Below, piece after piece: positions 9,409-26,167 of a stretch of 64,000 bases of DNA. Location: assembly GCF_902713615.1 (NCBI RefSeq), contig NC_052150.1, positions 172,628,100 to 172,692,099 of the forward strand. Reading direction: 5' to 3'. The first letter of the stretch is position 1. Each line of letters opens with the position of its first letter. Under the pieces are notes generated by a model. That model was not told where the DNA came from. It worked only from the letters and a program-made list of their open reading frames with translations, and did no database searches. The stretch is from Scyliorhinus canicula. Lineage: Eukaryota. The position numbers and the translations under genes were made by a program.

Positions 9409-10989
9409 TTCTCCTTAATCAATTTAAGTGGTTCTCTTACCTCATGACCAAAAATTAGGTCAAAAGGACTGAATTTGGTTGAGTCATCAGGTGGATCCCT
9501 AATTGCAAACAGTACGAATGGAATTCCTTTATCCCAATCCTCTGGATAATCCTGACAATAAGCCCTCAACATTGTCTTTAATGTCTGATGCCACCTTTCT
9601 AACGCTCCCTGCAATTCTGGATGGTACGCAGTTGATTTAAATTGTTTTATTCCTAAGCTATCCATCACTTCTTTGAATAACCTCAAGGTAAAATTTGATC
9701 CTTGGTCCAATTGTATTTCTGTGGGTAGTCCATATCGAGTAAAGAATTTAAGTAACTCCTCCACAATCTTTTTAGCTGTAATATTACGTACTGGAATGGC
9801 CTCTGGAAACCTAGTAGACACATCCATTATAGTCAAAAGATATTGATCCCCACTTTTTGTTTTAGGAAGCAGTCCTACGCAATCAATTAGGACTCTTGTA
9901 AAAGGTTCCTCAAATGCTGGAATGGGGATTAAAGGCGCTGGTTTTATCACTGCTTGAGTTTTCCTATCACTTGACATGTGACATGATTGACAAAATTTAA
10001 CTACATCTTTATGTAGTCCAAGCCAATAAAACTGTTTCTGGATTTCAGCTTGAGTTTTCCTTATTCCCAAATGACCTCCCACTGGTATCTCATGTGCAAC
10101 TCGCAACATCTCCTTTCTATACCCTGTCGGCAATACTACTTGATGAACTTCTGCCCTCTTTTCATCCGCCTGCATATGTAAAGGTCTCCATTTTCTCATC
10201 AAGACATCACTTCTACGATAATAACACTCTGGTATACACTCAGATTCCTCTTCCGTGTATGCTTTCTGATACATCCCTTTTATTTCTACATCTTTTTGTT
10301 GTAACTCCGCCAATTTTCCTGAACTAAAAATATCCGCCTCATCCTCCACCTGTTCTTGTTCTTTTTCAACCATCTGATCAAAAGAAAATTCTGATAATTG
10401 CACTTCAACGTCATCTTCACTCTTTGATTTCTCCTCTTGTCTTAACCAGTGATTTTGTGACCTTTTTACTACACTATCCGATAAAACCCCAGGATATTCG
10501 TCCTTCAACATTTCAGTTGTCTGATTTTCTACTGGCTTATCATCCACAGTAGGCATCACTCCCACCTGCAATCCAGCTATATCATTACCCAAGATAAACT
10601 GTATTCCTGGACGAGATAGTTTCTCTATTACTCCTATTACCACTTCACCACTCTTCACTGGACTTTCCAAACTTACCTCTCACCCTGAATTCCACATATT
10701 AACACCTTTCCTGGCAACATTCTTCCCAAACTACATAACGCCTCATCTCTTACCATTAAAGATTGACTAGCTCCCGTATCTCTTAAAATTGTGACTTCTT
10801 TACCTGCTCCACCTGATACACATGAGTAAACTTTACCCACACAAGTAAATTTTTAAAAGACAGCTGGCATCTTCTTACCAATCACCTCTTGATCAGGCTG
10901 TACAATCATTTGCACCTCCTTCGCTTCACTTTGGCTTTCTTTCCTTTACCACTTTAACAAACCCTACTGTCTTATCCTGTTTTACCACA

Positions 10990-16285: not shown

Positions 16286-16729
16286 GTGAAGTGAGAGAGA
16301 GTTTTCTCTCATTTGAAATGTTTGAGGGCGATGTTGTGGTTTTTCAGGAGGCCCATCTGAGGGTTGTTGCTCGTTTTGGTGATTGTGCTTTCCACTCAAT
16401 TGGCTCTGTTTTATTCCCTTACTCTAGAGTCGCCAGGTATCTTTATGATACCACCACGAGGTTCAAGTTCAAGTGCTGATCAATGACTCAGCACACCAGT
16501 TAGTAAGGTTCAAATCAAAACACATTTATTATATACACAGTCAATCGCTACTCATGCATAAATACTACAAAACTAAGCCACTTCTCCCACTACAGGCCAA
16601 TATTTATCTTCTGGAAAAGGAACCCACTGGGTCAGGGAACAATGGCCTCTTGTTCAATCCTGGGCTGCAGGCTTCCAACTGGTATAGACTAAGGGTCAGG
16701 AGCGCCTATCTCGTAGCGTGTGTTGACTG

Positions 16730-17661
16730 TGTAGCCATCTAAGATGCACACCAGTAACACAAAATGGAAGACTGCAAAGAATACAGGGAAAAACGGACAT
16801 AGTAAAGAGCAAACAGCTTGCAGAAGCAGTCAGTATTGAGACACTTGCAAAAACCGGTTTCCCGACAGCTGCAGAGTTCAGGCAGCACTGTAAATGGGAA
16901 AACAGTTTACATACTAATGAGGTGATACCGGGACAGTCCCGGGCACAATAGATACACTCAAGGATCAATCGATACTTTCAAAAGCGAAGCAGACACGATG
17001 GAGCCAGCGAAACCAGGACAATGAGTCCTAAGAACCGCCCCAGCCATCAAGGAACGACCCTAGGATAGGGGGGTTCAAATCATATCGATTGGGAAAAGGC
17101 CCAATCGATCCCCAGCAGGTGAGGAAGCCCGCCCCATGGGGCACGGACCTGCTGGGACCTATAAAAGAAGGTCCCGCACATGGTTCGGTCTCCTGTCTCC
17201 GGCCTCCGACTCCAGAATCCTGTCTTTTACACCAGCCGACGAGCAGCAGCCATCAATAAGTAAGTGCCAAACGACGATCGCTACCTTGACCCAGGCATTA
17301 CTTATACCCGTGCCAACCAGTAGTAACAAGAAGTTGCAGACCAGAACGGAACGAAGGCCTTGTTCCCTGACCTTGCCTGTTCCTTCTTAGATAAGTATTA
17401 GTCGTTTAATGGTAGAAGAAAGTTAGTCTTTAGCATTTGCATGAGTATTTATTATAATTGTTATAATAAACTCTAACTGTTTGGACTTACTAATTGGTGT
17501 ATAGCTTTATTGCTTTGAACTTGACCTTGATACTTGTGACGGTGTCTCTTACGGCACCTGGCGACTCCAGAGCATAGAAACGAGAAACAGAGCCAAGCGA
17601 GTGTTAAGCACACTTCCTCTGCTGGAGGAGTGTTAAACACACTTACTCAGAACGAGCAACA
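16730..17661 (+). repeat. 5' LTR (932 bp)
   Basis: tgtagcca...gagcaaca, TATAAAA at 17160-17166, AATAAA at 17465-17470. The last 170 bp recur at 25370-25539. Confidence 0.9.
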
Positions 17662-17666
17662 TTTAG

Positions 17667-17684
17667 TGGCGACTCCGCCGGGAC
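17667..17684 (+). promoter_or_regulatory. Primer-binding site, tRNA-Arg(UCU)
   Basis: TGGCGACTCCGCCGGGAC is the complement of the 3' 18 nt of a vertebrate tRNA-Arg-TCT (...GTCCCGGCGGAGTCG-CCA, recalled sequence). It lies 5 nt after the LTR end. Confidence 0.85.
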
Positions 17685-17972
17685 ACGATTAGAAGTGGCA
17701 CCCCCACTCCGAGAGAACCCAGAAATTTGAATTGGAAATCTAATTGGGAAAAAGGAAATATCACAAGTGTTCAAGGAGTTCAAATCAATAACGATAATTC
17801 GGAAGTGTGTTTTGTGCATGCGTAACTAACAGGGTTGTAAGGTTAAACTGAGAGATTTTTGTGTTGCGACAAACTGTCGGTAGTTTTTTAAGCGGAACAT
17901 AGTGAAAGCCTTACCCGTCTTTTAAAACATTACCTGATCATCCCCTGTTCCAAATTAAGACAGAAAGAGGAA

Positions 17973-19718
17973 ATGGCCATGCAGGCAATGGAACGCCTCA
18001 TGAATCCAGAGCAGTTCGTGGTCGCAGCGACCAGCAGTAGCAGAGTAGGCCAGTGTCCCGTGTGGGAGCTGGAACTCCGCAAGTATCTAAAAGGGAAAGG
18101 ATGGCCCTTTTGGAATGAGTTTAGTATGAATGAGGAGACAGGTCCCGGGAGTATAGGACATACTTGGTGGGAGAACCTCTCTCAAATTCATAAGAAAAAT
18201 CTTAGTAAAGCACGCAAGCCGATGGCAATCGTGTCCTGTTTGGCACAATTGCGAGGCACTGAGGAGGTCGTTCGGACGCTCCGAGCAGAGTTAGAGGAAC
18301 AAAACAGAATGAGCAAAGTGGATGTCAGGGACATTGAAAGGGAAAACCTCGAGCTAAGAGGGAAGCTGGCAGAGAAGGGTAGAGAGGCAGATGATGCAAA
18401 GAGGGCACATCAGTCGTGTCTAGCCCATCTGAGCAGTTCCCAGACCCAATATGAAAAAGCCTATCAGGATGTGCAACGTGCAGTCCTGATACGAGAGGAA
18501 TCAGAAAAGCAGGTAGAGGCAATGCAGAGGCAATGCTCGGACCTAAAGGCAGCTTTAAGAGCACTCCACGCTGCCACCACTGAGCAAAGACAGAGCACAG
18601 TGGACCACGCAAAGTGTAGGAAGCAGATTGCGGAGCTGCAATCGTTGCTTTCAGTGCAGAATGGGTTCCAAAGCACCTTTGGAACACAGTTAGATGAGGA
18701 GAATGCCCCAGATTGGCAGGAATTAAGTGAGACAGCGCAGCGCTATGTTCAGGGAACATGTGCGCCAGTAGCGCAGCAGAAAAGGAAAGCACCCCAAACC
18801 CCCAAGATCAGATAGCACCCGCACCTATGAACCCAGTCACCACCCAAAGAAAGGCAACCACAGACGGCGCACCCGACATCACCTACACCACCCCCTTAAC
18901 TGTAACGCAACTCAGGGACGCGTGTGAGAAAATCACTCCGTTTCTCCCCACCGCAGACCCCCACCAATTTTTCGCTAAAGTAAAACAGCAGGCTACCATG
19001 TACGGCCTGGACGAAAGACAGCAGGTTAAGCTCACTGTTTTGAGCTTAGACCAGTCTGTAGTAGCAGCCCTCCCCGACCCACAGAATGTTGGAGGAGGCA
19101 CACTAGAAGAGATGCATACATCCATTTTGGATGAGATAGGATATAGTAGAGGAGACCCAGTCGAAGGCCTAAATAGATGTAGGCAAAAGAGGACAGAGCA
19201 CCCCACAGCATTCGCAGGAAGGCTAGTGGATCCATTTCACTGCCGTTTTTGGCGAATTAGACCGAGCGCATTTAAACCGAGACAACATGGTTAAATGGAC
19301 CCGCACCATAATCTCCCATGCCACAGATGCAGGACAGAATGCTTGCAATAGTTATGACCCCTCAGAGGAGGCCCATAATGAGAAATGGGTTCTGAAAAGA
19401 TTGTCCCGCGCTTGGGAACAATCTGTCCAGGGCAAAGTTAAAGTAAAGACCCCAGAGGAAGCTCAGGCTGCAACGGATATTCAGGCAGTGAGAGCGCACC
19501 AAAACCCCACATGGGTAAACGAAGGGAAGAACAGCCCTCCACAGAAGTCGCAGGAATGCTACAACTGTGGTCAATTAGGCCATTTTGCAAAAGAATGCAA
19601 TGCCCCACAGAGATCACAGAGAGGCCAGCAGACAGGCACTCTGAACAAGAATAGAGCGAAGCCCATCCATAGTATAGGGTTACAGTCAGGACAGACCAAT
19701 GTGGACGGAACGGACTGA
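17973..19718 (+). pseudogene. gag: gag (N-terminal domain, long coiled coil, capsid-like region, single CCHC knuckle); two frameshifts
   Basis: ORFs 17973..18815, 18758..19294 and 19287..19718, with CYNCGQLGHFAKEC. Ends in TGA at 19716-19718. Confidence 0.85.
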
Positions 19719-22700
19719 CGGTGTTCGGGCTCCCCCACTTGGGTCTGTGACACCCTCTGGGACCAATCCGGAAGGCCGGTAGTCACAGCAAAGTTTAGTG
19801 GGAAGCCCATAGAATTACTTTGGGACACAGGAGGGTCCCGCACCACAATTAATTCCACCACCACGGCACAGGCAGACACGTGGCCGACCACATCCACAAT
19901 TACACTCAGCGGATTTACAGGTCACTCGCAGCAGGGACACATTACAGCCCCCATAGCAATTCAGCTAGGGAACATCTCCACCAGACACCCCATTGTTTTA
20001 GTTAATCTACCCCGCACAGCAGAACACATACTGGGTATTGATTTCATGAATGCCCATAGCCTGTTGTTCGATCCAGTAAACCAGTGTGTCTGGCGAATGG
20101 CAAAATCAGACAGAGTACCCGCTACTCTCACAGTAGGAGAGTATGCAAATCGGATTAGCGCAGTAGGCTACTATTGTTTTGACCTGACCACGCTTAGTAC
20201 AGACAGACAAGTTAGGGCAGTTCTAAACCGACACAGGACAGCATTTGCCAGTCACCGGCACGACTGCGGCAGAATGACTGGACATGTTCAAGTTACCGGA
20301 CCTGACCCCAGACCACAGAAACAGTACCGATTTCCTCTAGAAGCAGAGGGAGAAATTGGAAAAGTAATAGACAGCTTATTGGAGAAAGGGGTACTTAGGA
20401 CAGTAGCCTCGACCAATAATGCACCTATTTGGCCAGTGAGAAAGCCCGACGGATCATGGCGTCTGACCATAGATTATTGGGAGCTCAACAAAGTAACCCC
20501 AGCAGTAGCCCCCCCGGTAGCAACAAGTCCCGAGACCATGCTCAAACAGGGACTCCACTCAAAATTCTTCACAGTTTTGGACATTAGCAATGGCTTCTGG
20601 TCAATCCCATTGGCAAAGGCGTGCCAGTACAAATTTGCCTTCACATTTAAAGGACAGCAGTATACGTGGACATGCCTCCCACAAGGATTCCACAATTCAC
20701 CCTCCATTTTCCACCGACAGCTGGCAAATGGTTTAGCAAAATTTTCCCGCCCCGAATGTCTGGTACAGTATGTGGACGACCTATTACTGCAGACAGACAC
20801 CAAGGCAGAGCACATTACACTTCTGGCCGAGCTCCTGGAACTTCTGAACTCAATCGGATGTAAAGTTAACCCCAGAAAGGCCCAAATATTAGAAAACCAA
20901 GTGATGTATTTGGGTAGTCATCACGCACGGCAAACGCGAGATCGAGTTCAAAAGAATTGAATCGATTGTCAAATTGCCCCTTCCCCAGAATGTTTCAGCC
21001 CTCCGGTCGTTTTTAGGACTGGTTGGGTACTGTCGGAACCATATCGATGGTTTCGCGACAAAGGCAGCCCCACTCTCTGACCTCCTTAAGAAAGGAGCCC
21101 CATGGGAATGGCTTCCGCAGCATACAGAGGCTGTGGAAGAGTTAAAAAAAGGCCCTTAGCGCAGCACCCGCGCTACAAGTCCCAGGCCAACTCTCCCCCT
21201 GTGCAATAGAGGTAGCGAGCACAGATCTGACCCTCTCGGCCGTGTTACTCCAGGAACGGCACGAGCAGCTACGACCCGTGGCTTATGCCTCACGACTTTT
21301 AGACCCCGTAGAGCAAGGATTTTCAGCCTGCGAGAGGCACCTCCTAGCAGTTTTTTGGGCAGTACAGTACTTCGCGTACATTACCGGACTCAATCCCATC
21401 ACCATTTTGACCGAGCACACCCCCACACAGTTACTTTTAGACGGTCGACTGAAGGACGGTTCAGTGAGCCAGATAAGAGCAGCTAGATGGACGTTACTGT
21501 TACAAGGACGGGACATCACAGTTAAACGGACCAGGACACACACATTTTTAGCCGACAACCTCCAGTATCCAGGACAGCCCCATGAATGCAAAATTGTAGC
21601 CCCCCTACACAACACAGGACCCTTCATAGCAAAGACACTCCCCAGAAAGATAGGAAATTCAAGCCAGAGCCCCCAGCACACAGACACGTGTGCCCCACTG
21701 AAAATATACATGGACGGTTCATCCACAGTTTTAGATGGAGAACGCATCACTGGATGCGGAATCTATGTTGAGGATGCGCAGGATCGCGCACTAGAGGAAA
21801 TTTCTTTAAAATTACCGGGTCACTTAGGCGCGCAGGCAGCAGAGCTCGCGGCCATCGCATACATAGTGGACCACCCCGATTCTTTCCCCAGCCCGGCAGA
21901 CATATATTCGGACAGTTTGTATGTCTGTAACAGCCTGACCGATTTTCTACCCCTGTGGAGGACACAAGGTTTTGTCTCCGCAGACGGGAAGCCCCTTCCA
22001 TCAGCCCCATTACTCCGCCATATCCTAGAGAAAGCAAAGGATAGGACTTTTGGCATAATTAAAGTTAGGAGTCACCATAGGTCATCCCCCCTGGAAAGGT
22101 AAAAGCCGACGCATTGGCAAAAGCAGGTTCCAGGCGAGGTCACCTTTGGACACCCCCAGCTAGCGCACCAGCTAGCGCCCCTGTGAGTGCAGTAGAGGTC
22201 TCACAGACAGATATTAAAGATTTAGTTGAGGCACAGAAACAGGACGGAAATCTCAGGGAGATTTTTAAAGGAAACTTTGTGGCCCAATATGATAGGTTCA
22301 GACACGCTTTGACCACACTTAAGGGTGTGATCATTAAAGACAAACTGTATGTGGTTCCTGAACAAGATAGGAATCAAATGATTGCCTTATTCCATGACAG
22401 TCGTGGACACCAAGGGATCGACCCGACCACAAGACACCTCAGACAACTCTGTTGGTGGCCAAACTTACGAATAGATGTGACACACTACATCGAGAATTGT
22501 CTAATTTGTGCACAAAATAACCCGGAGAGGTACTCAAAGAAGGCACAACTTAGCCATACTCGCCCCGTTAATGGCCCCTGGACAAACCTCCAGATCGATT
22601 TTATAGGACCATTGCCCCCTTGCAGGAATGGCTATAAGTATGTTCTGGTAGTTATAGACACCTTTACCAAATGGGTAGAGGCATTCCCTTCACGAACCAA

Positions 22701-23472
22701 CACAGCTAAGACAGCTGCAAAGATCCTGACCCACCACATCTTTACGAGATGGGGTCTCCCCAGAAGTATAGAGTCAGATCAGGGATCTCACTTCACAGGA
22801 CGGGTCATGAAGAACGTCCTGACCATATTCGGCATCAAACAAAATTTCCACATTGCGTATCACCCCCAGTCAAGCGGGATAGTAGAACGCATGAATCGGA
22901 CCCTAAAATCGACCCTTAGGAAGATGGTACAGGAGAACAATTCGACTTGGGATTCAGTGCTCCCATTCGCACTAATGTTCATCCGCAACACGGTTTCATC
23001 ACCTACAGGTTTCACCCCACACACACTCATGACCGGACGCCCTATGAAAGGGATAGAATTCCTTTTAGGACTGGAAATGACTAGCCCCGAAGTGACGGCC
23101 CTCACACATGAGAAGGCAGTCAAAGATTTAGTTGAGACTGTGAGGTCTGCACAGTTAGCAGCCGCAGTAACCCTAGGCAAGCGACGAAAACAGAGCACGG
23201 CTTGTTTTAATAAGAATGTACACCCCACGGAATTTCAGGTTGGACAACAGGTTATGTTATCTGTTTATAACCCCAGCACGTTTTTGGCTCCTAAATTTTC
23301 CGGCCCGTATTCAATTTCGGACAAAATCAGCCCCTCTGTTTACAGAATAAAATACCCCAACGGTAAGACTGCGTGGTTTCATATCAACCAGTTAAAGGCT
23401 TATGGAACGCAGTCCAACCACACACACCATGTCCTACTGGATGCTGCACAACATCTCAACTCCGCTCACTGA
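19719..23472 (+). pseudogene. pol: pro-pol: protease, RT, tether RNase H, RNase H, integrase; about three frameshifts
   Basis: LLWDTGGS (DTG at 19824-19832), ILGIDF, LPQGFHNSP, YVDD, RPVAYASR, YMDGSS/AAEL/YSDS, HHCC (HDSRGH...CLIC), IDFIG/SDQGSHF/VERMNR and GPY. Confidence 0.92.
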
Positions 23473-23607
23473 CTCCAGACCACGCCCCGGAACGTCCACA
23501 AGCTTCCACAGCAGAGACAGCAACACTGACTGTGACAATGAGGACAGCCACAGCACCCCACCCTACAGCCCCACTTTAGCGACTACGACCCCGACTCCAG
23601 TGACCCC

Positions 23608-23892
23608 ATGGAAGTCACCTACATTAAATATCCAAACCCACACCCAGACCCACCACCTGACCCCGACGATACCGACTATGCCCCTTCAAATTTAGACACC
23701 ACATTTTGGCACAGGGACAATTCATGGCGACTTGTCCGCAATGACGAGAGTGACCCCCGGTCACATAATGCACAGATTGCATGCCTGATCCATACGAGGG
23801 TATGGGATCCGGGAGAAAAGGAAGACTTGATGTCTGACTCCCAACACGGCAACCCCTTTGTGACCCAGTTCACAGAGAAAGAGGAGAAGTGA
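23608..23892 (+). other. Acidic Pro/Asp-rich ORF downstream of integrase (probable frameshifted Pol C-terminal extension or accessory ORF)
   Basis: 94-aa ORF preceded by a Ser/Thr/Asp-rich frame (23402..23695). No recognisable domain. Confidence 0.4.
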
Positions 23893-24765
23893 GGTGTCCA
23901 GATGATGTAGCAGAGGAACCGCTTGAGGGAAGCAATATCCTTCCTGATGGAACCTGCACGTTTGTTTGTTTTGTTTATATGTTAAGGGTTTGATTGCAGA
24001 TGTCTTTTCAGCTGAAAAGCTTGTGACCGCCTCACATACACGTTAGTTTGTCCGCAGATATCTCTGAGAACTTCAGTTAGATATCCTCTGGTGAACCGAC
24101 AAAGTTCACGACTTGTCCTATGTTTTCAGATGTTGGAGCATCTTGGCTCCTCCCTTGGTTTTCTTTTTAGGTGCCCCTCTATTCTGTGAATAGAGGCTGC
24201 AATTCCACGATGAATACATTCTTGCCCGTTCATTTCAGGTTGCTCAGGCAGTGGAGAAATGGCATTGAGGACCCGCCCTGTCTGAGAACCCCCTTTTGGA
24301 CAGCCAAGCTCGGGTACGGCACAGCACGCCTTACCCGGGGATCCCATACAAATCTTACCCGTAGCGGCCCATATGCAACTCATTCGACCTTTTCGTTCAA
24401 AATTTGGTTTCATTTTTCTTTAGGTAGCCCTTCGGCAGCCATCCCATATGCTATTTACATCCAGGAACATTCAGATGGTAAATCGCAACGCCTGCGAGAC
24501 GGCTCACAGTGGTAAAATTGTTAGGTGTATGTCTGGTCCTAAATTCGCATTTGAAAAAAAAATGAGGGGAGTCACAGGGTGTGACTTGGCCATTCATTTA
24601 AGGGACAATTGGAAGGAGAGGACAGATACACTAGCATAACAGATATTAAACTATGTATTGACAGATACTGTGCTTGATCCCATAGCTTTCGAACAGTCGA
24701 AGGAGGGATCACAGCAAGATCAGCTATACAAAAGGAAGAGAAGGAAGAGAAGAAAGAAGACCACG

Positions 24766-25110
24766 ATGGAAGCCTACCTATTTCTATTTTACGTTGTTGT
24801 ATTTTTGCACGTAGACGCAAACCATGTTTCCCCCATGACCCCCGCCGTTAATATTTCCCACACACTGACTTCTCGAAGCCCAGTGATGAACAGCGAGGTT
24901 CAGACCTGGTGCACAAAATTCATGACCTGGTACTCGCTTTCATACATAATTGAATCACTGTTGGTGATTGCAATTCTCTGCATCATAGTGCAGACCCTCA
25001 GGTTGAGGAAATGGAAAAGGAGAGCCTCCCGCTCTTGCCCCTCAACCATTTACCGAGTCCAATCCCCTATTTTCGGTTTTCACCAATCCCCCCAACCCCT
25101 TGATGTATAA
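24766..25110 (+). CDS. 114-aa putative type-I membrane accessory protein of the provirus
   Basis: Strong Kozak context accacgATGG. Signal-peptide-like MEAYLFLFYVVVFLHVDA, N-glycosylation sequon NIS, TM helix YIIESLLVIAILCIIVQTL and polybasic RLRKWKRR. Confidence 0.6.
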   Translation: MEAYLFLFYVVVFLHVDANHVSPMTPAVNISHTLTSRSPVMNSEVQTWCTKFMTWYSLSYIIESLLVIAILCIIVQTLRLRKWKRRASRSCPSTIYRVQSPIFGFHQSPQPLDV

Positions 25111-25369
25111 GAGATTTATTTAATGCGATCTGTAAATAAAAGGATTACGGATGTATTATATTGTTCTGAACTCGACTGCCGAGTCAGAAAGCAAGATGTA
25201 CTGTGGTATGAATGAGTAAGATTTTAAGATATGATAGAATGTTTTTAAAATAAGACGAGAGTAGTTATTGTGATAGGTAGAGGTTCCCGTGTATTGGTAG
25301 TGCATGCCCCCTTTGACATAGCGCCAATTAGAGAAATGTTATCTAAACATTTTTGCCATAGTTAAGGAC

Positions 25370-25539
25370 AATTGCTGTATAGCTTTATTGCTTTGAACTT
25401 GACCTTGATACTTGTGACGGTGTCTCTTACGGCACCTGGCGACTCCAGAGCATAGAAACGAGAAACAGAGCCAAGCGAGTGTTAAGCACACTTCCTCTGC
25501 TGGAGGAGTGTTAAACACACTTACTCAGAATGAGCAACA
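25370..25539 (+). repeat. Truncated 3' LTR (terminal 170 bp only)
   Basis: Matches 17492-17661 with two mismatches and is followed by the TSD ACTG. Confidence 0.92.
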
Positions 25540-26167
25540 ACTGGACACTTACTTGGTGGTGCAGCTGCAAGGCAGTTCAAGGTCAAGTGTTGTTTCGGTC
25601 TGCTGCGTGACCCTGCCGAGAAGTCTATCGAGAGAAACTGCCAAGAGAGTGAATTGAACTTGGGACCTGTCTTTTATAGGCCCCAGGGGCTTCGCGCCCT
25701 TTTGGGTGGACCCTGTACCTGACTCCAATCGATTGGATCACGTACCAATCGATCGGTTTGAATTCCCCAATACTGGGGCTGTTTCCTGATCGCTGGGTGG
25801 TCCTTGGGTGCTTGTTAGCCTCTTTTGTCTTGGACTCCTGCTGGCGCCGAGAAGTCTGGTTTTACCTCGATTATCCTAACTGTTGCTGTTGTGTCTGGGC
25901 ATCGCTCATTAATATGTAGATTACTGCTGGTTTCAATGCTGTCTGCTTTCTGCAACTCGAATATACAGAAGAACTCTGCAAACTGCTTGCTTTCTCATAC
26001 TATCCAATTTTCCCTGCGTTCTTTGCGAATCTCCATTTTAAGTCGGGAAGTGGCCAACCCAGGTGGCTACAGGGTGAAGGATCAGATTCGGCTCCATAAG
26101 GGTTGGCTGAGCCAGGTGTTTCACTTGGGCTTTGCCAACAGGGCCTGGGGTGGCAATACTAATTAAT

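Follow-up and report, generated by a model that had tools for sequence, protein, structure and literature searches.

An apparently undescribed, conserved small membrane-protein gene in a snakehead-retrovirus-like endogenous retrovirus family of catsharks

In a broken catshark provirus, a 114-codon open reading frame follows pol and precedes the 3' LTR. Does it encode a viral protein, and if so, what might that protein do? The frame lies in a 64,000-nucleotide stretch of the Scyliorhinus canicula genome (the window; all coordinates are positions in it on the forward strand), where a first-pass annotation had read it as an orphan accessory membrane protein of the provirus. Accessory genes in retroviruses of basal vertebrates are almost uncharacterised, and a conserved protein centred on its transmembrane (TM) segment would suggest that shark antiviral immunity offers a target within the membrane. 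The frame is very probably a selected gene, and it apparently represents a conserved small membrane-protein gene of a catshark endogenous retrovirus (ERV) family resembling snakehead retrovirus (SnRV). The gene is undescribed in the literature searched, a search with Repbase, subscription papers and preprint supplements outside its scope; beyond the papers discussed below, the available parts of PMC9040795, PMC4422223, PMC12440569, PMC5512871, PMC4299795, PMC12193657, PMC2717909, PMC13517186, PMC1224870, PMC10435555 and bioRxiv 2021.11.23.469661 were covered.

The element that carries the frame occupies 16730–25539, and its features, with those of its immediate surroundings, are as follows.

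16726..16729, plus strand: target-site duplication ACTG, left copy (exact 4 bp)
16730..17661, plus strand: 5' LTR, 932 nt, TG...CA, with a TATA-like sequence at 17160, a candidate splice donor at 17260 and AATAAA at 17465
17667..17684, plus strand: primer-binding site, from sequence
17973..19718, plus strand: gag in three reading-frame pieces, without Gly2, with one CCHC knuckle and a TGA stop in frame with pro
19719..23892, plus strand: pro-pol (PR, RT, tether, RNase H, IN and an acidic/Pro-rich tail), interrupted by three or more frameshifts and by further breaks in the tail
24670..24765, plus strand: leader of the small frame, with candidate 3' splice sites (AG ending at 24685, 24696 and 24714) and a purine run
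24766..25110, plus strand: 114-aa frame, predicted type I membrane glycoprotein, from sequence, hydropathy, AlphaFold and conservation
25135..25140, plus strand: AATAAA, candidate poly(A) signal, 24 nt past the stop codon of the small frame
25370..25539, plus strand: 3' LTR remnant, the last 170 nt, 98.8% identical to 17492–17661
25540..25543, plus strand: target-site duplication ACTG, right copy (exact 4 bp)
25540..26071, minus strand: opening half of an older, related LTR that runs in the opposite orientation, 62% and 69% identical to the 5' LTR, its other half lying at about 16384–16729

The provirus inserted into the older inverted LTR and split it. A delimitation with 163-nt LTRs and a 5-bp duplication was dropped, since the exact 4-bp duplication and the split inverted LTR together show that the LTR is 932 nt long and that the 3' end has suffered a deletion. 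This copy has lost the rest of its 3' LTR and a preceding stretch of undefined length. No env is found before 25370, the longest stop-free stretch in a six-frame check from the IN stop to the LTR remnant being at most 156 codons; as the DNA beyond is deleted, a separate env may have lain downstream of the small frame. The primer-binding site matches what we take to be tRNA-Arg. The older split LTR and the 5' LTR have a TATA region and a GTAAGT donor-like motif in common, and the donor-like site at 17260 lies 5' of the LTR poly(A) signal at 17465; in foamy viruses, a donor upstream of this signal suppresses polyadenylation in the 5' LTR.

The first-pass annotation had linked the element to lokiretroviruses, whose Env is reported to resemble fusion proteins of Mononegavirales, a link that the polymerase does not bear out. 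In a hand count over 139 RT positions, made on the alignment that the supplement of PMC7947760 prints, the element agrees with SnRV at 79, with equine foamy virus at 59 and with Loki-Lch at 58, that is, 57% identity to SnRV against 42% to a Loki, and its RNase H motifs agree by eye with those of SnRV. The same source records lokiretroviruses in none of six chondrichthyan genomes. The element is best placed as an ERV of the SnRV clade and not a Loki, an assignment by identity rather than phylogeny. The catshark element has a Gag without Gly2, a single zinc finger and an in-frame gag-pol stop, in agreement with descriptions of SnRV, whose Gag is not myristoylated and whose stop is suppressed. 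They differ in that SnRV has a full env and a UAG gag stop where the catshark element has UGA. At the end of the catshark gag (19716–19721), CGG comes directly after the TGA stop, which lies in the frame of pro; readthrough of the UGA type is reported for other fish retroviruses. SnRV is also reported to express several small reading frames from subgenomic RNAs; compared by description only, none is presented in the available text as a signal-peptide membrane protein.

With lokiretroviruses the element has in common a tether followed by RNase H (PMC7947760, in part), and with Loki-Xtr a tether motif seen by eye; this dual arrangement, visible here as an RNase H after a tether-length region, is general to retroviruses. 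Unlike the Lokis in that source, the element has no CPFGY-type motif and no F-like env, and neither a reading frame like the fusion glycoprotein PF00523 nor a Pfam match to it was found in this copy, whose 3' end is deleted. The best integrase match is to S. torazame (84%), the integrase relatives carry NYNRIN-like names, and a tree made by a quick method from 92 rows kept of 102 matches, with no named retrovirus references and hence no separation of Loki from SnRV, puts the element among vertebrate NYNRIN-like integrases, those of S. torazame included. A class III-like ERV of S. canicula, ERV-Spuma.0-Sca (PMC10699275, in part), is of similar size and has an 'env' listed as a CDS without a reading-frame row, but it differs in its LTR start and its gag and pol lengths and is grouped with fish foamy-like ERVs; on a comparison over the first 400 of its 9220 letters, it is unlikely to be the catshark element.

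As the first-pass annotation had said, the small frame is intact, with a strong start context (A at -3, G at +4), one sequon (N29), a polybasic stretch and two hydrophobic segments, at about residues 1–18 and 58–78. The A-x-A-type end of the first segment suggests a signal peptide of about residues 1–18 cleaved after A18. The ectodomain of about 40 Ser/Thr/Pro-rich residues proposed earlier holds for residues 19–47, to which this composition is confined; residues 48–60 instead form an aromatic segment that is among the best-conserved parts of the protein. The TM segment (about 60–78) carries Glu63 and is followed by the polybasic stretch (79–89) and a tail with conserved Tyr96 and Pro101. In an AlphaFold model (pLDDT 62), residues 2–19 and 48–89 are helical and the stalk and tail are disordered. 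Shuffling of 23900–25369 (1470 nt, n = 2000) produced an ATG frame of at least 114 aa in 2% of cases. By itself the intact frame in this copy is weak evidence, because about five frame breaks per 6 kb of gag-pol would spare most stretches of 345 nt.

Relatives provide the stronger test, and they remove the orphan status once given to the protein. A HMMER scan with the 114-aa protein against 1.84 billion representatives returned four matches, the best from S. canicula at 78% identity, and a profile search of longer proteins returned 11 matches from 10 loci, all Scyliorhinus. In total, relatives are found at 10 other Scyliorhinus loci, in two species and three subfamilies, at 33–78% identity to the protein. 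Seven of these loci are host genes (SUGCT, KIAA1958, a galectin-domain gene, B3GAT1-like, CFAP36, HEPACAM2-like and PTGER3) and the remaining three are uncharacterised models whose N-termini are unrelated. The possibility that the frame is an N-terminally extended protein was rejected, as the extensions of about 100 aa in P0001–P0003 bear no relation to one another. Five of the 10 loci are open throughout, one overruns the stop and four are partial, in a sample of annotation models retrieved by homology that is biased towards open frames and represents few independent branches (the three subfamilies).

Full-length pairs across the three subfamilies are about 42–56% identical, and this identity is unevenly distributed: between subfamilies it is highest in the polybasic stretch (72%) and the aromatic segment (70%), intermediate in the TM segment (55%) and the tail (45%), and lowest in the stalk (33%) and the signal peptide (24%), with conservation clustering in residues 47–89 (permutation p = 0.0006). 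W48 and C49 are kept in 11 of 11 sequences, W55–L58, Y60, L66, A69, K82 and W83 in 10 of 10, the intramembrane Glu63 in 9 of 10, and the sequon in all 10 sequences that cover it. Under neutrality at 44–50% identity, a frame would be expected to stay stop-free in 3–5% of cases per lineage and each Trp or Cys to be retained with a chance of about 40%. Conservation along one face of the helix found no support (p = 0.14, 0.59, 0.26 and 0.024 in four windows). A YRV motif had been pointed out in the tail; its Tyr is indeed kept in all eight sequences covering it, but the fourth residue of the motif, counted from the Tyr, is Q or R in the seven that reach that position (P0004 stops at the third), so the motif is not a canonical YxxPhi signal.

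Outside Scyliorhinus, similarity searches gave little. None of five candidates in a search of proteins of near length was significant, ESM Atlas returned for the frame only generic TM neighbours scoring below 0.9 and for a relative none, and a Foldseek comparison of the low-confidence model with viral models gave 0 of 27 matches at E <= 0.001. Scans of metagenome and viral contigs contained no relatives of the frame or of the RT; 18 distant integrase loci were set aside.

The host-gene chimeras also indicate how the frame is reached. Their entry points into the relatives lie about 16–22 codons above the Met; a single one, at 22 codons, is common to four S. torazame models, and in each of the three host genes checked (PTGER3, SUGCT and B3GAT1) the chimera departs from the normal isoform exactly at the junction. 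These shared junctions imply a working splice acceptor just 5' of the gene, as far as annotation mirrors RNA. There is no ATG between 24654 and 24765, and as the relatives do not share its reading frame, the leader (24670..24765) is taken to be non-coding. For seven host genes of S. torazame (P0004, P0107–P0113), RefSeq lists isoforms that terminate in the element's exon. The new C-terminus of at least seven chimeric host genes includes the TM segment in six, and the chimera of the G-protein-coupled receptor PTGER3 is truncated after a TM segment. That at least seven host genes in catshark models end in this exon represents either a route by which exonisation recurs or a trap in the annotation.

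RNA of the family was also detected. In the oligo-dT run X24, depth over the frame was 43 on one strand against 1 on the other, compared with 1.4–9.7 over pol; it climbs from about 23800 and drops from 43 to 14 in the bin after the AATAAA at 25135. By library convention this RNA is probably sense-strand, with 3' bias a possible contributor to its depth. Reads at least 99% alike to this copy numbered 13 of 1101 (X24) and 25 of 6156 (X23), which means that almost all of the family RNA comes from other copies. Among the best 12 of 141 indels, none fell in the frame and five fell in the 500 nt upstream, a weak pointer in favour of the frame. No splice joints were seen in a mapped stretch that began 3' of the candidate LTR donor at 17260. 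Together with conservation across three subfamilies and the common splice entry, this family RNA supports the earlier reading of an accessory membrane protein of the provirus.

How such a protein might act is suggested by where it is conserved. As the stalk varies in length and sequence while the membrane helix and both its flanks are kept, the protein may act within the membrane or at its face through contact with a second membrane protein, and a short, variable ectodomain argues against receptor binding or fusion. HIV-1 Vpu and the adenovirus E3 proteins reroute or block host membrane proteins. Like the 114-aa protein, Vpu and the E3 glycoproteins are small, single-pass accessory proteins whose function likely resides in TM segment and tail, and by this analogy the catshark protein may well be an accessory glycoprotein of the Vpu/E3 kind acting through its membrane helix, a reading that we favour tentatively. 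A subgenomic RNA spliced to the acceptor just 5' of the ATG would be translated into a small type I glycoprotein with a cleaved signal peptide and a short glycosylated spacer. One long helix (residues 48–89), with a Trp/Tyr/Cys girdle, the intramembrane Glu63 and a basic cytoplasmic face, would span the membrane, bind a host membrane protein and reroute or block it. The analogy has its limits, in that Vpu has neither a signal peptide nor a glycosylated stalk, and the very weak Pfam matches to two E3 families do not amount to significant homology.

The main alternative is that the family has no true env and that the 114-aa protein, a signal peptide attached to a membrane-proximal aromatic segment, TM helix and tail, is a remnant of env or a replacement for it, anchoring the non-myristoylated Gag or aiding budding. 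The frame follows a splice acceptor at the place of env, the sequence from the IN stop to the LTR remnant has no stop-free stretch longer than 156 codons, Gag lacks Gly2, DNA contigs cover 30 of 30 bins of the element, and the Trp/Tyr-rich segment before the TM helix resembles those typical of the membrane-proximal regions of viral glycoproteins. However, the protein has no cleavage (furin) site, fusion peptide or heptad architecture, in line with the earlier observation that Env features are missing. No env appears in the Pfam, PDB-based or BFVD comparisons or among the 11 longer matches, all of which are host-gene chimeras or models with unrelated N-termini. The earlier concern that the frame is a fragment of a longer env thus gains nothing from longer relatives. 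Also against the alternative, a separate env may lie downstream, given the 3' deletion in this copy, and three X15 contigs carry other sequence from 25370 onwards. SnRV-like ERVs of the elephant shark (CmiERV lineage I) were defined by possessing env. We consider this alternative unlikely, and it hinges on whether env is present beyond the deleted 3' end in intact copies. If the family truly lacks env, this would be a new way for a retrovirus to retain a surface protein; that a transcribed, long-lived shark lineage without a conventional env uses the 114-aa glycoprotein as its sole surface protein, for budding or cell-to-cell spread, seems distinctly unlikely.

The protein could also descend from a host gene, TMEM156 for example, that was captured and shortened, an origin compatible with the other readings and, in our judgement, doubtful. 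A weak Pfam match over the TM region in three of five members (best E 0.011) points that way, but its score is 15.5 bits against a gathering cut-off of 27 (PF15106), protein searches retrieved neither TMEM156 nor another host protein, and the ESM Atlas matches are mutually inconsistent. Capture has a precedent in crocodilian ERV4, which is reported to have acquired KIT-ligand and nectin3. That the single TM segment oligomerises into a channel is improbable: the aromatic cluster, polar TM residues and basic tail would suit a viroporin, and influenza M2 is among the weak ESM Atlas neighbours (0.83, below the usable level), yet clear polar-face periodicity is absent, and viroporins do not typically have a cleavable signal peptide and a glycosylated stalk like those predicted here. 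The SH-like role raised earlier founders on topology, that of RSV SH being the opposite. The FAST-like fusogen also proposed, which would spread between cells without virions, is very unlikely indeed, although the protein is small and single-pass, no env is seen in this copy, and the membrane-proximal polybasic motif is present (residues 79–89, 72% conserved between subfamilies). FAST proteins have no cleaved signal peptide and carry either an N-myristoylated Gly2 or an ectodomain cystine loop, whereas this protein has the wrong topology, a predicted signal peptide, a variable glycosylated stalk, a single ectodomain Cys and Gly2 in none of the aligned sequences. Finally, a non-functional frame carried passively in the repeat is very improbable; four of the 10 relatives are partial and the sampling favours open frames, but against it stand the patterned conservation, the sequon and hydrophobic segments kept despite 24–33% identity, and the 2% length null.

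Some further observations concern the DNA around the gene. The region 23900–24600 is rich in indels, and RNA coverage reaches its maximum for the element there (as much as 66 in X24 and 256 in X23); it may be a structured export element or mark where a subgenomic RNA begins, and strong polypyrimidine-AG sites lie at 24057, 24129, 24170, 24238 and 24423. A 12–13-nt motif with only two copies in the window (24599–24611 and 25363–25374) brackets the small-frame cassette; many RNA reads diverge directly after the first copy, and the second lies at the 3' deletion junction. On the minus strand at 9417–10142, a distant second integrase, 33–35% identical to P0005 and P0006, marks another LTR element.
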